Source: a phage. Taken from it: DNA of 64,000 nt. Below, in pieces: positions 7,017-64,000 of the stretch. Under the pieces are notes generated by a model. That model ran no database searches. It was given only the letters and a program-made list of their open reading frames with translations, and had not been told where the DNA came from. The DNA lies in the sequence record PX915677.1; one strand, written 5' to 3'. A program made the position numbers and the translations under genes. Positions within the stretch are counted from its first letter, which is position 1; each line of letters starts with the position of its first letter.

Positions 7017-7235
7017 ATGAAAATGATGAAACAAGCTGCATATGGTTTAATATGTTTAGGCGCAGGTGTTGTGGTATCCACCGCAGTTCCTGTAGGCGCA
7101 GTTCATCCATTAGTAACTGTCCCTGCTCCAGTAGAGAAGCTTAGCTCTCAATGCAAGCAGAGAACAATTCAAAATAACTTAGTTGTTATTTGCCCTGATG
7201 CTGAATCTAACGCTCTGAGAAAGATACTACCTTAA
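7017..7235 (+). CDS. small membrane/secreted protein adjacent to endolysin (holin or lysis accessory candidate)
   Basis: 72 aa, N-terminal hydrophobic segment AAYGLICLGAGVVVSTAVPVGAV; SD taggag; directly upstream of the lysozyme gene. Confidence 0.35.
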   Translation: MKMMKQAAYGLICLGAGVVVSTAVPVGAVHPLVTVPAPVEKLSSQCKQRTIQNNLVVICPDAESNALRKILP

Positions 7236-13641: not shown

Positions 13642-14424
13642 ATGGCAATCAGAATGGGTATCGAAGAACTAGACCCAATGGTTCAACAGGCTTCAAAGAA
13701 GTATGGGATTCCTGCTGCTTTAATTCATGCTGTCATCCAAAGAGAGTCCAGTGGTCGTCCTACAGTGGCCTCTGGAACTGGTCCTGTAGGTTTAATGCAG
13801 ATCAGTAAAGGGTTGGCTAAAGATTACGGTTACAAACTAGAAGATAGACTTGACCCAGCAAAGAATATTGATATGGGCGCTCGTTACATAAGAGATAACT
13901 TAAAAGCTTTTAATGGTGATGTTAAGAAAGCAATGGTTGGTTATTCAGAAGGTATCGGTGGAGCTAAGCAAATGTTCGCTGGTAAAAAGGGGTTTACTCC
14001 ACAAGCTCTTGACTCCATGAACAATAAACACTTTCTTCCTTTCTATGGTGATGCAGCCTCTCAGATTGCTAACCCTGTTGGAGCTTTGCAAGCTGTTCAA
14101 CCAGTCAATCAGTTTAGTCCTGACTTGTTAGATAGAGAGAAGGCCGCACAAGCTCCAACTCAGGCAGAGATTGCTGCTTCTAAGACAGGTGCTTTAGGTG
14201 GAAATCCAGTAGAGTTTTACTCTGATGAAGTGCAGGAAGGCGAAAATCAGAAACCTCAACAGAACTTTGGTAATGCAGTATTAGGGGTAGCTGCTATGCT
14301 TGCTGGTAAACCTCCCACTTCTCAAACAGTTCAGAGGGCAAGTGCACCACATGCAGCAGGTTCTCAGTACAGTCCACAAACACAAGCAGTGCTCAGACGT
14401 CTGGCTAGCATTGGTGTAAAGTAA
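13642..14424 (+). CDS. virion-associated lytic transglycosylase (SLT domain protein)
   Basis: ...ALIHAVIQRESSGRPTVASGTGPVGLMQISKGLAKDYGY... matches the SLT catalytic core (E-S ... GLMQ); SD taaggag. Confidence 0.7.
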   Translation: MAIRMGIEELDPMVQQASKKYGIPAALIHAVIQRESSGRPTVASGTGPVGLMQISKGLAKDYGYKLEDRLDPAKNIDMGARYIRDNLKAFNGDVKKAMVGYSEGIGGAKQMFAGKKGFTPQALDSMNNKHFLPFYGDAASQIANPVGALQAVQPVNQFSPDLLDREKAAQAPTQAEIAASKTGALGGNPVEFYSDEVQEGENQKPQQNFGNAVLGVAAMLAGKPPTSQTVQRASAPHAAGSQYSPQTQAVLRRLASIGVK

Positions 14425-48406: not shown

Positions 48407-50437
48407 TTAACCTCTATTCAATGAACATTTAGGAGAATTACAATAAACTTGATTCATAGAACCAAGCGTACAACTTTCAGCATCGCGCCACGGAATCTGC
48501 TTAAAACACTCTGAGCAGTATCCGAGGGTTGACCACATGGCTTTGGTGAAGTCAGTGCTTCGGTTTCCGTCGAAGCTGACAACAGTTTTTCGGAGAGCTG
48601 TTCGTGATTCAGGAAACACACCTGCTTTCTCAGCAGGTTCCTCCTTTTTTGGCTTAGTTGAGATTGCAAAAATACTGTTGCTACGTTTCTCAACATAAGC
48701 ATCAACAACATCCTCCAGAGTGATGCCTGTCTGTTTCGCTGATGAAGGTAATATAGTCATACGACCAATCATTTCTTCAGTTACACGTAAAGCAAACTCG
48801 GGACGACGGGCGTTTGTTGTATCTGTTGCTTTAATCCATACATAACCATCTTTGATCGTAGCATTAGATACTTTCTTCTTTACTTCTACAGCGCAGACTT
48901 TACAGATATCTTCACCACGAAGACGACTAAGTTCATCATCGAACTCATTCTCTGTTTTAACTTCACCACAGATTTCACAAACACCAATAGGAGTTTCCTC
49001 CTCTTCTTCCTCTTTAGGTTTAGTCAAACCTTCCAGACATTCAGGATGCCAATAGCACTGATATGCGAAGACTGCTTTAGGTGCATCCTTCCAATCAATG
49101 TGTTTGTCACAACCACCACAATCACCATGAGAGTGTGCTTCCCAGAATTTACGAGTGATAGTAACGCCGTTCTTGTTGACGAAACTATCATTCATATCAA
49201 AAGGGATATCATCATCGAAGTCAGCAGTAGTTGACTCAGGCTCCTTTTTCTCCAGAGATGGGTCAACAAAACGACCTGCTGTGATCACTAAGCGAACCAT
49301 AGCATTAACTTCGGAGATGCAGGATACTGTCCCACGGTAAACAATTTTAGGGTCTTTCAGGGCATCCTGATAAGCCTTAATGTCTACGTTATGAACATCA
49401 CCTTCGATGTACTCTTGAGACTTCTCATCGTAGATATAACCAATCATCTTACCACGAGAAGGAACAGCACCAGCAGTTGCATAAGGAACAAACTCATGTG
49501 GTGTGATTTCCACAGTCATATCGCGGCGAATATCAATGTTTCGATCGCTTGCGATTTTGTTTTGACTTACCACTGCGTTTCTTCGACGAACGTCTGCCGC
49601 TGTCACTCCTGGCTTCGTGTCGTAAGGATTGCTTGTACTGCTTTTTGAGGAACTTTGATAGTTGCTTTGGCTGTAGTTGTTCGAGTAGTAACTGGCCCAA
49701 CGATTGACTACCGTAAAAACCGGAAGCTCGTGGGCGACCTCTTCAACCAGAGTCATACTGTTGTTTGACATATCAAAGATATATTCTGTACCAACTTTAC
49801 ATTCAAAATGCTCGTCAATACGATTCTTATGAGACTTAGAACGCTTCAGAATCCACATCAACATATCTTCTTCAGAAGCACCAAACCAATCTCTGTTACA
49901 ACGTGCGAGGTGGAATGGACGCTCTTCGTTACGGATGATATGAAGACGGTTATCAGAAGCATCATGCCAGATTAAAGTGAAAGCACCATCCAGCTTTTGA
50001 ATAGTCTCTGCTGCACCAATAGTGTTAATAGAGTGGCAGATGTTCTCACTGTCTACCTCGAAGTTTTTGCTGTCAGGTAACAGATCTTGGTCCATCAAGG
50101 TTCCGTTATGAACCAGAGTGATGTTACCATGTTGGAAAGGATGGGCGTTCTTGGCGTTAACTGCACCTTTCGTTGCATGACGGCTGTGACCAACAATCCA
50201 TGAAGGTGCTACAGTGTAAGCTGTTTCACCAGTGGTGTGCTTCTTGTACTCATCTTGTAGGATGAATGCGAAAGAAGGAAGAGCTTCTTTATAAGTGAAG
50301 ACTTCCTTAGTGCTTTTACGCTGACCAAAGATACCGGAGGAATGTTGTCCTCGGAATACTCCAGCATAAAAGAGTTGGTTAAATACGTCTAAATCAGTGC
50401 TTGACAGATTACCGCCAGCTAATACGATGCCACAAAT
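48407..50437 (-). CDS. class-II (Ntn) glutamine amidotransferase domain protein with Cys-rich C-terminal region; apparent ATT start
   Basis: Frame open from stop 50441-43; N-terminus ?CGIVLAGG, HSRHATKG and LVHNGTL motifs; no ATG/GTG/TTG before codon 114; SD aggtgg 8 nt upstream of ATT-TGT; multiple CxxC pairs C-terminally. Confidence 0.6.
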   Translation of the reverse strand: MCGIVLAGGNLSSTDLDVFNQLFYAGVFRGQHSSGIFGQRKSTKEVFTYKEALPSFAFILQDEYKKHTTGETAYTVAPSWIVGHSRHATKGAVNAKNAHPFQHGNITLVHNGTLMDQDLLPDSKNFEVDSENICHSINTIGAAETIQKLDGAFTLIWHDASDNRLHIIRNEERPFHLARCNRDWFGASEEDMLMWILKRSKSHKNRIDEHFECKVGTEYIFDMSNNSMTLVEEVAHELPVFTVVNRWASYYSNNYSQSNYQSSSKSSTSNPYDTKPGVTAADVRRRNAVVSQNKIASDRNIDIRRDMTVEITPHEFVPYATAGAVPSRGKMIGYIYDEKSQEYIEGDVHNVDIKAYQDALKDPKIVYRGTVSCISEVNAMVRLVITAGRFVDPSLEKKEPESTTADFDDDIPFDMNDSFVNKNGVTITRKFWEAHSHGDCGGCDKHIDWKDAPKAVFAYQCYWHPECLEGLTKPKEEEEEETPIGVCEICGEVKTENEFDDELSRLRGEDICKVCAVEVKKKVSNATIKDGYVWIKATDTTNARRPEFALRVTEEMIGRMTILPSSAKQTGITLEDVVDAYVEKRSNSIFAISTKPKKEEPAEKAGVFPESRTALRKTVVSFDGNRSTDFTKAMWSTLGYCSECFKQIPWRDAESCTLGSMNQVYCNSPKCSLNRG

Positions 50438-59487: not shown

Positions 59488-59563
59488 TGGTGCGCCCTAC
59501 AGGACTCGAACCTGTAACCAATAGCTTAGAAGGCTACTGCTCTATCCATTGAGCTAAGAGCGC
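59488..59563 (-). tRNA. tRNA-Arg (anticodon TCT)
   Basis: Hand-folded cloverleaf: acceptor GCGCTCT/AGGGCGC, D-arm GCTC-AATGGAT-AGAGC, anticodon loop CTTCTAA, T-arm ACAGG-TTCGAGT-CCTGT, encoded CCA. Confidence 0.8.
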
Positions 59564-62098: not shown

Positions 62099-62356
62099 TT
62101 AATCCACCTTATTGGTAAGTCGAGCATTATCAACTACCTGAACAACAGTATCTTTTCTCAACATTGTTATTCTATCCGAAGTGAGATCTACTACTACTCT
62201 TTCGTCAGGCTTCCAACTAGCTGAATAAACGGTTGAGGAATCTAGCTTTACTGTAAGATATATTTTATTTTTAGGTGGAACAGTTTCAAAAACACTCCCC
62301 ACCTTCAGGTCTTTCAGTTGCTTGACTACAGGGGCTGTATTAATATCATGCTTCAT
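62099..62356 (-). CDS. small protein, expanded paralog family
   Basis: Start at MKHDINTAPVV with SD aggag; VKQLKDLKVGSVFETV... Confidence 0.4.
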   Translation of the reverse strand: MKHDINTAPVVKQLKDLKVGSVFETVPPKNKIYLTVKLDSSTVYSASWKPDERVVVDLTSDRITMLRKDTVVQVVDNARLTNKVD

Positions 62357-62642
62357 TGTTAATCTCCTGCTGCTTAGCAATAGCCACTCGTAAGTCTTCA
62401 TTAGCACGAGCAAGGCGCAACACTTCATGATTGAGGTTCTGAAGACGTTTGTTTCTGTCTTCAACTTGCATAATAAGATCGTTGAGTGTTACTTTAACTT
62501 TCTCGTTATACATCTCATCCACTCGAACTAGTGATTTATACATTCTCTCCCAGCTTGCTGCTTTGTTTCTGAGAACAATAAACCCTATAACGCTGATAGT
62601 TAAACAGCTTACAAAAAGGAATTTATATACTTCTAAAGTCAT
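62346..62642 (-). CDS. membrane-anchored coiled-coil protein
   Basis: N-terminal TM FLFVSCLTISVIGFIVL followed by heptad-rich helical region. Confidence 0.4.
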   Translation of the reverse strand: MTLEVYKFLFVSCLTISVIGFIVLRNKAASWERMYKSLVRVDEMYNEKVKVTLNDLIMQVEDRNKRLQNLNHEVLRLARANEDLRVAIAKQQEINNEA

Positions 62643-62841: not shown

Positions 62842-63231
62842 TTATTCCCTAGAGCTATTATCGAACACTAAATCACCACAATACATAGGATTGGCATACC
62901 ATTTTGGCACCCCTTCGCTCTTACTCTGAAAGTAAGTCCCACTGTACAGCGGAACATAATTCTTCTTAAGGGCACGTTTAGCAAGTCGCTCGCTTTCTCC
63001 AATGGCTTGCTTAGTCATCGGATTTTTATCACGAATCAGCTTTACATAACGTTTATAAGGTTTCTCCTGTTTTAATAGTACCGGAATCCACTCAAACTGG
63101 TTCTTCTGTCTTATCACCTGTTCAGCGGTCAGTTTTCGTTGGGCCATTCTATTTATCACGGTATCCGCAACTAAAGCCTTACATGCGGTTGGCTGATTCC
63201 CTGCCTCATAATAAATAGTCAATGTCAACAT
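62842..63231 (-). CDS. SleB/CwlJ-like cell wall hydrolase domain protein
   Basis: TIYYEAGNQPTACKALVADTVINRM...EQVIRQKNQFEWI matches Hydrolase_2 (SleB) core pattern. Confidence 0.5.
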   Translation of the reverse strand: MLTLTIYYEAGNQPTACKALVADTVINRMAQRKLTAEQVIRQKNQFEWIPVLLKQEKPYKRYVKLIRDKNPMTKQAIGESERLAKRALKKNYVPLYSGTYFQSKSEGVPKWYANPMYCGDLVFDNSSRE

Positions 63232-63304
63232 TAGCTGTGCCGTTGTTATCAGAACTTGCTACCTCCTGTTTTGTTGTTTCAATAAACACCCTCGAAAAGA
63301 TGCT

Positions 63305-63334
63305 TATAGAAACACCCCTCCCTTTCGGGAGAGG
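63305..63334 (-). terminator. rho-independent terminator (minus strand)
   Basis: ccucuccc-gaaa-gggagggg stem (GNRA loop, one G-U) followed by U-rich GUGUUUCUAU. Confidence 0.55.
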
Positions 63335-63341
63335 CACTATC

Positions 63342-64000
63342 TTACCACTCGTAACTTACACCAGCGCCCAGAACAGCGTCACTCTCTGAAGTCATTGCCA
63401 CTGATGCTTTAGTTACTACGTTTTCATTGAAACGAGCACTAACACCAATAGCAAGAGCAGATTCACCATCGTAAGCACCTACCCCAGCACCAACAGAGAA
63501 AGCAGATCCTTGACTTACTTGCGGGATGTTAGCCATTGCAGCCACGCCAGAAATACCAGCAGAGGCATGATCACGGTTACGGTCTACTTGTTTTTGCAAA
63601 GAAGCAAAACGTTTATTGGTGGATTGTTCCAGAGCTTTGATGGATTTGGCGTTAGCATTAACGGCAGACATATCTGCATCTTTACCATTTTTGCCATTTA
63701 ATCCGTCAACGCCATTCAAACCTGCTGCACCAGTTAGGCCAGTTTCGCCTCTCTTACCATCTGCACCAGAATCACCTTTTTCACCTTGAGCGCCTTGTTC
63801 TCCATCAATGCCATCTTTACCATCAATGCCATCTTTACCATCAATGCCATCTTTACCATCAATGCCATCTTTACCATCAATGCCATCTTTACCATCAATG
63901 CCATCTTTACCATCAATGCCATCTTTACCATCAATGCCATCTTTACCATCAATGCCATCTTTACCATCAATGCCATCTTTACCATCAATGCCATCTTTAC
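63342..64000 (-). CDS. collagen-like repeat protein with YadA-anchor-like C-terminal domain (5' partial, continues beyond window)
   Basis: Frame of listed ORF 63342..63719 stays open upstream through uninterrupted Gly-X-Y triplets (GET GLT GAA ... then (GKDGID)n); C-terminus GVAAMANIPQ...GAGVSYEW resembles trimeric autotransporter anchor. Confidence 0.55.
   Translation of the reverse strand, partial: KDGIDGKDGIDGKDGIDGKDGIDGKDGIDGKDGIDGKDGIDGKDGIDGKDGIDGKDGIDGKDGIDGEQGAQGEKGDSGADGKRGETGLTGAAGLNGVDGLNGKNGKDADMSAVNANAKSIKALEQSTNKRFASLQKQVDRNRDHASAGISGVAAMANIPQVSQGSAFSVGAGVGAYDGESALAIGVSARFNENVVTKASVAMTSESDAVLGAGVSYEW
63802..64000. repeat. perfect 18-bp tandem repeat array, at least 10 copies, truncated by window end
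   Basis: Unit ccatctttaccatcaatg repeated head-to-tail from 63811; encodes (GKDGID)n on the minus strand. Confidence 0.9.

Follow-up and report, generated by a model that had tools for sequence, protein, structure and literature searches.

The catalytic glutamate of SleB has been reported to be essential for lytic transglycosylase activity (PMC12331253). The equivalent glutamate of a SleB-like T6SS effector is needed for toxicity in the E. coli periplasm (PMC11148199). Both the SleB and the SLT domain are assigned to the lytic transglycosylases, and GH24 enzymes to the muramidases (PMC6403190). SleB-like proteins also serve lysis in Gram-negative phages, as described for CB7_83 and CR3_087, the Certrevirus/rV5-type homologues in which signal peptides have been reported (PMC7344957). 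In T5-like phages, a SleB-like gene co-exists with an M15 Lys-holin pair, a situation that has been remarked upon without resolution (PMC3326045, PMC11180984). More distant genomes, those of Salmonella phage 7-11 and of GAP52, are without the holin-GH24 cassette, as noted in the description of SU10 (PMC4281155). A tblastn search with the 7-11 protein returned more than 1000 phage records, mainly T5-like phages, rV5-like phages and Klebsiella/Salmonella relatives. The T5-like, 7-11 and phiEco32-like genomes examined carry the SleB-type gene beside another endolysin. In 7-11, the other gene is a Peptidase_M15_4 'endolysin', which makes the SleB-like protein an additional enzyme in that phage as well. 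Carrying a SleB-type gene on top of the main endolysin is thus a common and known pattern.

The DNA analyzed here, called the window, is a stretch of 64,000 nucleotides (PX915677.1). Over the 4 kb around the SleB-like gene, identity is 98% with Escherichia phages SkaterBoy_Bas90 and MN03 and 95% with phiEco32, which identifies the window as a Kuravirus (phiEco32-like podophage). Its features are collected in Table 1. The 129-aa protein has 100% amino acid identity to phiEco32 gp117 (phi32_117), SU10 CDS116 and the Bas90 protein, and is called gp117 below. With this protein as query, tblastn found 63 phage records at 99% protein identity or more and a second homologue group of 85–93% identity in the genera Suseptimavirus and Nieuwekanaalvirus. 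gp117 belongs to the core genes of Kuravirus. Its labels differ between records: 'hypothetical protein' for phi32_117, 'cell wall hydrolase' in ShigP1 (ShigP1_00028), Paul and EcP-vB, 'hydrolase' in Ptacy1532, and 'Cell wall hydrolase SleB domain-containing protein' for the SU10 orthologue in UniProt. The window protein is assigned to PHROG 12974, of unknown function, with a weak second match to the endolysin PHROG 938. As an annotation, the finding is already known, because the identical protein was deposited in 2008 as phiEco32 gp117 and the SleB hydrolase label exists in UniProt and several GenBank records.

Table 1. Coordinates of gp117, its surroundings and the other peptidoglycan-active genes in the window.
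Feature	Position	Strand	Remarks
Holin gene	7017..7235	+	One TM; adjoins the GH24 gene; phrog_11161
GH24 phage lysozyme	7265..7756	+	Soluble endolysin without SAR domain; PF00959 E=3.7e-32
SLT-domain lytic transglycosylase	13642..14424	+	Internal virion protein; PF01464 E=1.2e-23
gp116 homologue, downstream neighbour	62346..62642	-	98 aa; N-terminal TM helix and coiled coil
gp117 orthologue ORF	62842..63231	-	129 aa; single SleB/CwlJ-type (Hydrolase_2) domain
Glu9 codon (GAG), motif YYEA	63205..63207	-	Counterpart of the SleB catalytic Glu (VYGES)
ORF annotated gp118 in phiEco32 and Bas90	63206..63337	-	43 aa; spans terminator, RBS and gp117 5' end
Probable N-terminal extension of gp117	63232..63252	-	7 codons (ITTAQL and start); CTG start at 63252..63250 gives 136 aa
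Shine-Dalgarno AGGAGGT	63261..63267	-	8 nt upstream of CTG; 29 nt upstream of annotated ATG
Terminator-type GC-rich hairpin and U-rich tract	63317..63334	-	After the adhesin stop, just before the gp117 RBS
Collagen-like/YadA-anchor adhesin, 3' part	63342..64000	-	phiEco32 gp119 homologue; runs off the window end

The window protein matches PF07486 Hydrolase_2 (IPR011105; 'Cell Wall Hydrolase') with 32.2 bits (E=1.7e-7), above the curated gathering cut-off (GA) of 27 bits, and the alignment covers profile positions 2–85 of 100. A Kuravirus clade profile searched against 1.8 billion representative proteins recovered 76 relatives at E<1e-3, and PF07486 was present in all 30 of the diverse homologues recovered in this way that were inspected. 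With a family profile of 58 sequences headed by the window protein, 4f55 and 4fet, two structures of the SleB catalytic domain, were matched at E=1e-19. A single-sequence phmmer search of the PDB sequences gave nothing relevant, a narrow clade profile of 10 sequences missed SleB in the PDB, and, when this narrow profile was compared with the SleB sequence by hhalign, the catalytic motifs were aligned at a probability of just 3.5%. The link to SleB therefore needed the broader profile. The AlphaFold2 model built from the 58-sequence alignment reached a pLDDT of 89.4 and a pTM of 0.85; an earlier AlphaFold model on a shallow alignment had a pLDDT of only 45. In a Foldseek search of the PDB, the sole matches with a probability of 1.00 were 4f55 and 4fet, and all others stood at or below 0.11. 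The SleB match had a TM-score of just 0.56–0.59 and a Foldseek E-value of about 0.02, values that count against an auxiliary endolysin model. In BFVD, Foldseek found the SU10 orthologue and dozens of models of phage SleB-type hydrolases at TM 0.6–0.75.

The SleB/CwlJ-like (Hydrolase_2) domain call is correct, far beyond chance. The original prediction had placed such a hydrolase at 62842..63231 from the sequence alone, and a 129-aa ORF has exactly these coordinates on the minus strand. The collagen-like gene that it had put next to the hydrolase is also there, with perfect GKDGID Gly-X-Y repeats (an 18-bp unit, 11.1 copies) and a YadA_anchor match at E=4.7e-20. gp117 is not SleB proper, which has an N-terminal PG-binding domain and a signal peptide; it is a single domain of 129/136 aa. 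An NCBIfam search with the window protein gave no meaningful match. The model of SleB proper, TIGR02869, was not matched by the window protein and gave 23.7 bits with the 7-11 protein against a cut-off of 236.5. The window protein is basic, with a net charge of +10 and a mass of roughly 15 kDa.

Glu9 is invariant in 58 of 58 family members, aligns with the glutamate of SleB VYGESRGE and sits just N-terminal of the PF07486 model boundary. The other family motifs kept in gp117 are N27-R28, Q45-F46-x-W48 and P109-x-W111. The C-terminal G-x-H-x-F-Y strand of the family is replaced in the window by C-G-D-L-V-F-D. His121, which is His in SleB and in 50 of the 51 other members, is Leu in the Kuravirus clade, and further replacements at near-invariant positions in the clade and its nearest metagenomic relatives are R11G, G17C, A20L, W77I, H103S and Y124D/N. 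The His to Leu and Tyr to Asp/Asn changes run throughout the Kuravirus clade and its nearest relatives (P0016–P0019). The usual Cys pair of the family (alignment positions 1 and 37) is missing, and a different pair, C17 and C118, is invariant within the clade. The end of the Pfam alignment at position 85 of 100 is consistent with these replacements, and, because near-invariant residues have been replaced in the clade, the activity or specificity of gp117 may be altered or lost. That this clade in particular has lost the His and further well-conserved residues would also suit a moonlighting or neofunctionalized protein, in which the SleB fold is kept, the selected role is cytoplasmic and early (for example, binding of a host or phage factor), and muralytic activity is secondary or gone. 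Such a change of role, the main rival reading, is rather improbable, as Glu9 and the motifs NR, QF and P-x-W are invariant, which is expected of an enzyme.

The gp117 product is probably a protein of 136 aa that would begin at a weak non-ATG codon, CTG here and TTG in relatives, because the annotated ATG (63231) is not conserved (CTT in 4E8, ECBP2 and SU7), the seven codons upstream of it encode the same protein with all three inter-genus nucleotide differences at synonymous third positions, and the CTG is invariant and corresponds in the alignment to the TTG with which four metagenomic relatives of 136 aa begin. In all four of these, AGGAGGT lies 3–4 nt upstream of the TTG. GGAGG or GGGGG is kept at the Shine-Dalgarno position in 7 of 7 aligned cultured relatives. 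The ECBP2, SU7 and KBNP1711 records start the gene at the internal Met29, which would delete the catalytic Glu. The overlapping gp118 is probably spurious and not a gene, because the inter-genus substitutions are all non-synonymous in its frame and synonymous in that of gp117; the upstream half of gp118 is not conserved.

A terminator-like hairpin lies directly upstream of gp117 in every relative examined. In the window, it was found by a terminator scan, has an RNA fold z of -3.7 and reads CCTCTCCC-GAAA-GGGAGGGG, with the stem also written CCTCTCCC-GAAA-GGGAGG(GG), followed by a U-rich tail. At the corresponding place, 4E8, ECBP2, SU7, KBNP1711, SU10, 7-11 and two of the metagenomic loci (L015 and L017) have a different hairpin, with a T-run, and a third locus, L016, has a hairpin without the T-run. 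The hairpin of the genomes that are without the adhesin gene is GCCCCGGCTACGGCTGGGGCTTTTTT. The search for a sigma-70-like promoter in the stretch from the hairpin to the gp117 RBS was negative. The phiEco32 gp36 middle/late promoter motif TAATGTATA was not found upstream of gp117, and its overall number of occurrences is that expected by chance; the occurrence nearest to the gene carries one mismatch and lies at 62537..62545 (- strand), inside gp116 and downstream of gp117. In the published gene classes of phiEco32 and SU10, the leftward block of SU10 CDS 69–125 is early and sigma-70-dependent, with its promoters further upstream, between CDS120 and CDS121 (PMC4281155, PMC8948821). gp117 is called early because it lies inside this block, in agreement with the early-region placement of the original prediction. 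The simplest reading of these signals is that gp117 expression would be low, through terminator read-through combined with weak initiation.

The codon alignment of gp117 from the window, 4E8, ECBP2, SU7, KBNP1711, phiEco32 and SU10, which spans three genera, gave dN/dS values of 0.07–0.19, with dS reaching about 1. The four metagenomic relatives (P0009, P0010, P0012 and P0014; loci L011 and L015–L017) are 69–74% identical in gp117. The other early genes that they share with the window are 27–60% identical over partial lengths, which makes gp117 the best-conserved gene of the early block in this comparison. About 100 Kuravirus-like records and the four divergent metagenomic relatives have an uninterrupted reading frame. 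These results showed that gp117 is a real gene under purifying selection. A non-ATG start, a terminator directly upstream, start annotations that are inconsistent among records and the loss of conserved family residues could all be read as marks of a decaying relic or a mis-called ORF without function, and this explanation is effectively refuted by the low dN/dS at such dS, by the intact frame and by the position of gp117 as the most conserved gene of the early block. The very strong conservation relative to the neighbouring early genes is also what a selected early role in the cytoplasm would produce.

Two other muralytic genes had been named in the original prediction, a GH24-type endolysin and a virion SLT transglycosylase, and both assignments hold. 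The GH24 protein carries the E25-x8-D34-x5-T40 motif and no hydrophobic N-terminus. Together with the adjoining holin gene, it forms a canonical holin-endolysin pair, so that holin lesions would release gp117 too. The SLT gene has 95.9% nucleotide identity to that of the SU10 'internal virion protein' gp20, a protein that MS identified in a PEG-concentrated preparation of SU10. By family assignment, the GH24, SLT and SleB enzymes all attack the MurNAc-beta-1,4-GlcNAc bond, because GH24 is a muramidase and SLT and SleB are lytic transglycosylases. The claim of three distinct muralytic enzymes thus stands as regards three peptidoglycan-active domain proteins, and is overstated as regards distinct types. 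The proposal that they act on different cell-wall chemistries found no support, as all three families target the same bond. It can also be observed that a second glycan cleaver beside GH24 brings no obvious advantage, which counts against an auxiliary endolysin model. The combination is not special to this phage either, since gp117 is shared across Kuravirus, and a SleB-like gene accompanies another endolysin in 7-11 and in T5-like phages as well.

The specialized role in entry that had been suggested is unlikely to belong to gp117. Many podoviruses package muralytic domains, and gp117 adjoins a gene annotated as tail protein or adhesin, so a virion-associated lysin used at entry was considered. 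This is very improbable, because SU10 CDS116, which is 100% identical to gp117, was absent from the 34 proteins that MS detected in the PEG-concentrated SU10 preparation, a non-exhaustive survey in which the SLT protein was detected. In addition, gp117 is an early-class gene on the strand opposite to the structural module. The adhesin neighbour is missing at this position in most relatives (SU10, 4E8, ECBP2, SU7 and KBNP1711) while gp117 persists.

The most hydrophobic 19-residue window of gp117 has a mean KD of 0.61, and sequence analysis found no signal peptide, TM, Tat or SAR segment. A SAR segment, which would be a weakly hydrophobic N-terminal TM stretch of about 18–20 residues with basic residues before it, was specifically considered and rejected: the first helix has only about 15 residues before Glu9/Glu16, reaches a mean KD of 0.61 and is without N-terminal Lys/Arg. 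As gp117 has neither a signal peptide nor a TM segment, any muralytic role must await permeabilization of the membrane. The MurNAc-GlcNAc bond is missing from cytoplasmic murein precursors and recycled muropeptides, and cytoplasmic gp117 would therefore be without substrate until the membrane is breached. Like a holin-dependent endolysin, gp117 is soluble and without an export signal. Holin-dependent endolysins belong to a late lysis cassette together with the holin; gp117 lies at 62.8 kb on the - strand in the early cluster. Its early rather than late class and its distance of about 55 kb from the holin/lysis cassette count against an auxiliary endolysin model. The early-class position and the missing export signal are also in keeping with a cytoplasmic function beside which muralytic activity would be secondary or lost.

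Another explanation is that gp117 is exported ahead of lysis, either non-classically or via gp116, and remodels murein locally in the periplasm. Possible uses would be finishing genome entry, superinfection exclusion or pre-weakening of the wall. The comparison with relatives lends this some appeal: the T5-like early-region homologue FFH1 ORF81 has a clear N-terminal classical Sec signal, MKAALLLVAALTFSFSSQA, the rV5-like/Certrevirus homologues have signal peptides, and a gp116-type gene with TM and coiled coil is syntenic downstream in all four metagenomic relatives (L011, L015, L016 and L017). The TM helix of the gp116 homologue has a KD of 2.15 over residues 5–23. The 'DNA helicase' label of gp116 in relatives has a PHROG name as its sole basis, and there is no Pfam match. 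Early export is nevertheless quite unlikely, since neither a signal peptide nor a Tat or SAR segment is present in gp117, and gp116 is separated from it by a spacer of about 200 bp, in which a promoter is annotated in the 4E8 and SU7 records, and is poorly conserved at 23–30% identity.

The preferred reading, at a probability of roughly one half, is that gp117 would be a low-abundance, holin-dependent auxiliary lytic transglycosylase acting beside the GH24 endolysin. According to this model, which is built on sequence comparison, gp117 would be transcribed with the early sigma-70 leftward operon solely via read-through of the preceding hairpin, and weak CTG/TTG initiation would let little of it accumulate in the cytoplasm. 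It would be harmless there, the cytoplasm being without the MurNAc-GlcNAc glycan bond. When the late holin permeabilizes the inner membrane, gp117 would reach the murein and cleave glycan strands beside GH24, with Glu9 as the general acid and 1,6-anhydro-MurNAc ends left behind. The entry enzyme would be the virion SLT protein and not gp117. The 'endolysin' labels on SleB-like genes in the 7-11 and rV5 groups support an auxiliary role in lysis.

The presence of a fully competent GH24 endolysin and holin elsewhere in the genome can also be read the other way, as leaving gp117 free for a moonlighting function, and 7-11 likewise has another endolysin, the M15_4 peptidase. T7 lysozyme gp3.5, which regulates T7 RNA polymerase, is a precedent for such moonlighting. 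By analogy, an under-expressed, cytoplasmic and early gp117 with the SleB fold might serve takeover of host or phage functions rather than lysis, in the way that T7 lysozyme acts on RNA polymerase, with the loss of the His and the C17/C118 swap marking the change; in this specific form, the idea is unlikely. A weak start and an upstream terminator suit a toxic enzyme better than a stoichiometric regulator, and there is no known partner for gp117.

The correct domain annotation of a publicly recorded gene adds little as such. What is newly added here is the corrected start and gene model, the conserved terminator with the weak start, the lost His and the swapped Cys pair, together with the presence of a second endolysin in 7-11-like phages as well. 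The corrected gene model matters for cloning, because of the CTG start and 136-aa product, the spurious gp118 and the internal-Met annotations that lose the catalytic Glu. SleB-type genes occur in more than 1000 phage genomes (T5-like, rV5-like, phiEco32-like and 7-11-like), and the finding would carry modest weight if their division of labour with the other endolysin were resolved. For this purpose, Kuravirus gp117 is a clean case: it is without a signal peptide, is extremely conserved and is present in a genetically tractable BASEL phage (Bas90). It would gain weight if a non-lytic reading were true.

Among the known systems, the Bacillus SleB catalytic domain and CwlJ (PDB 4F55 and 4FET) belong to the same family and fold as gp117, with the catalytic Glu ending the first helix. 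SleB and gp117 share the NR, QF and P-x-W motifs after this Glu (PMC12331253). gp117 is CwlJ-like in being a single domain without an N-terminal PG-binding domain. It differs from SleB in its identity of only about 15%, its TM of about 0.57, its missing signal peptide and the Leu in place of the His of G-x-H-x-F-Y. The context also differs, as SleB and CwlJ are spore cortex-lytic enzymes whereas gp117 belongs to a phage. SleB recognizes muramic-delta-lactam, and the murein of the gp117 host is without it. The SleB-like T6SS effector T6EC3 has a SleB fold with a catalytic Glu and damages E. coli murein from the periplasm, causing rounding and lysis (PMC11148199). Unlike gp117, it depends on the T6SS for delivery, comes with an immunity protein and is found in an unrelated context. 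The SleB-like proteins of T5-like, rV5-like and Certrevirus phages have the same domain, are small and are often far from the holin, as is gp117, but they reach the periplasm themselves via a Sec signal, which gp117 does not have.

The closest systems are the orthologues in Kuravirus, Suseptimavirus and Nieuwekanaalvirus, which occupy the same genomic position, where just the adjacent adhesin gene varies; the phiEco32, SU10 and Bas90 proteins are identical. More distant homologues, labelled 'putative endolysin', lie in the leftward region of Salmonella phage 7-11, Cronobacter A24/GAP52-like phages and Proteus Privateer-like phages. Around the homologues of 7-11 and A24, neither a holin nor a spanin recurs consistently as a neighbour. 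An origin of gp117 as an ancestral sole endolysin displaced by the GH24 cassette is made less likely by the M15_4 'endolysin' of 7-11. The 7-11 protein and its Cronobacter and Proteus relatives (Grimontviridae) are single-domain proteins of 141 aa without a signal, at about 32–36% identity to gp117. Like gp117, the 7-11 gene lies in a leftward, non-structural region with a terminator-like hairpin before it. In contrast, the 7-11 type still has the His of the family (GNHYF) together with the C..C pair, starts with ATG and scores 62 bits against Pfam, compared with 32 for gp117.

Public records, among them loci L008, L009 and L010, differ in where they begin gp117, the gene whose homologue here encodes the SleB-like protein. 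An ATG is used in phiEco32 and a TTG in 4E8, whereas the records of ECBP2, SU7 and KBNP1711 start at an internal Met29, and a gp117 begun at this residue would yield a product that has lost the catalytic Glu. Judged from sequence comparison, an invariant CTG preceded by a good SD is favoured as the better start of gp117, and it matches the TTG starts of the metagenomic relatives. The short gp118 ORF runs across the terminator hairpin and the RBS into the 5' end of gp117. Substitutions between genera are all non-synonymous in the gp118 frame and synonymous in the gp117 frame, and gp118 is probably not a gene.

The usual conserved Cys pair of the SleB-like family occupies alignment positions 1 and 37. 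The Kuravirus clade carries the invariant pair C17 and C118 instead (window codons within 62842..63231), and this swap accompanies the loss of the conserved His121.

Features in and around the SleB-like locus and in related phages (coordinates refer to the window unless a locus is named)
Feature	Coordinates	Strand	Remark
gp117 start region	63232..63267	(-)	invariant CTG, good SD
gp118 ORF, 43 aa	63206..63337	(-)	annotated in phiEco32 and Bas90
gp116 homologue, 98 aa, downstream of gp117	62346..62642	(-)	'DNA helicase' label from PHROG name
Collagen-like adhesin with YadA anchor	63342..64000	(-)	repeat at 63802..64000
Phage 7-11 'putative endolysin', Peptidase_M15_4	L013 39019..39411	(-)	middle region
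Phage 7-11 'putative endolysin', SleB-like	L004 3974..4399		early region
FFH1 ORF81, T5-like SleB homologue	L014 2420..2869		

The adhesin repeat consists of an 18-bp unit in 11.1 copies, 100% identical, which encodes GKDGID. SU10, 4E8, ECBP2, SU7 and KBNP1711 lack the adhesin gene at the corresponding position, and it is therefore a variable insert that separates gene 120 from gp117. The insertion carries its own terminator hairpin. A tRNA-Arg(TCT) gene lies within the early gene block (59488..59563, minus strand), as it does in phiEco32, ShigP1 and Bas90.

The gp116 homologue has a single N-terminal TM helix and a coiled coil, with no Pfam match. Its synteny with the SleB-like gene extends to the four metagenomic relatives that keep that gene (L011, L015, L016 and L017), at an identity of only 23–30%; to assign it a spanin- or holin-like role would be pure speculation. 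All four relatives encode a TerB-domain protein a few genes downstream of the SleB-like gene, and three of them (L011, L015 and L017) also have a KilA-N-domain gene. None of the window ORFs located between position 50000 and the end of the window, used as tblastn queries, matched the TerB/KilA-N stretch of these loci (8025..9311 in L011). The contigs, which reach 96 kb, may belong to a sister group of Kuravirus that has yet to be described.

In Salmonella phage 7-11, the two genes annotated as putative endolysins belong to different families, and this two-enzyme set parallels the pattern of Kuravirus and T5-like phages. The T5-like homologue, ORF81 of FFH1, begins with a Sec signal peptide of the classical type (MKAALLLVAALTFSFSSQA), whereas the Kuravirus and 7-11 proteins have none. 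Therefore, one domain is used with differing topologies across phage groups.
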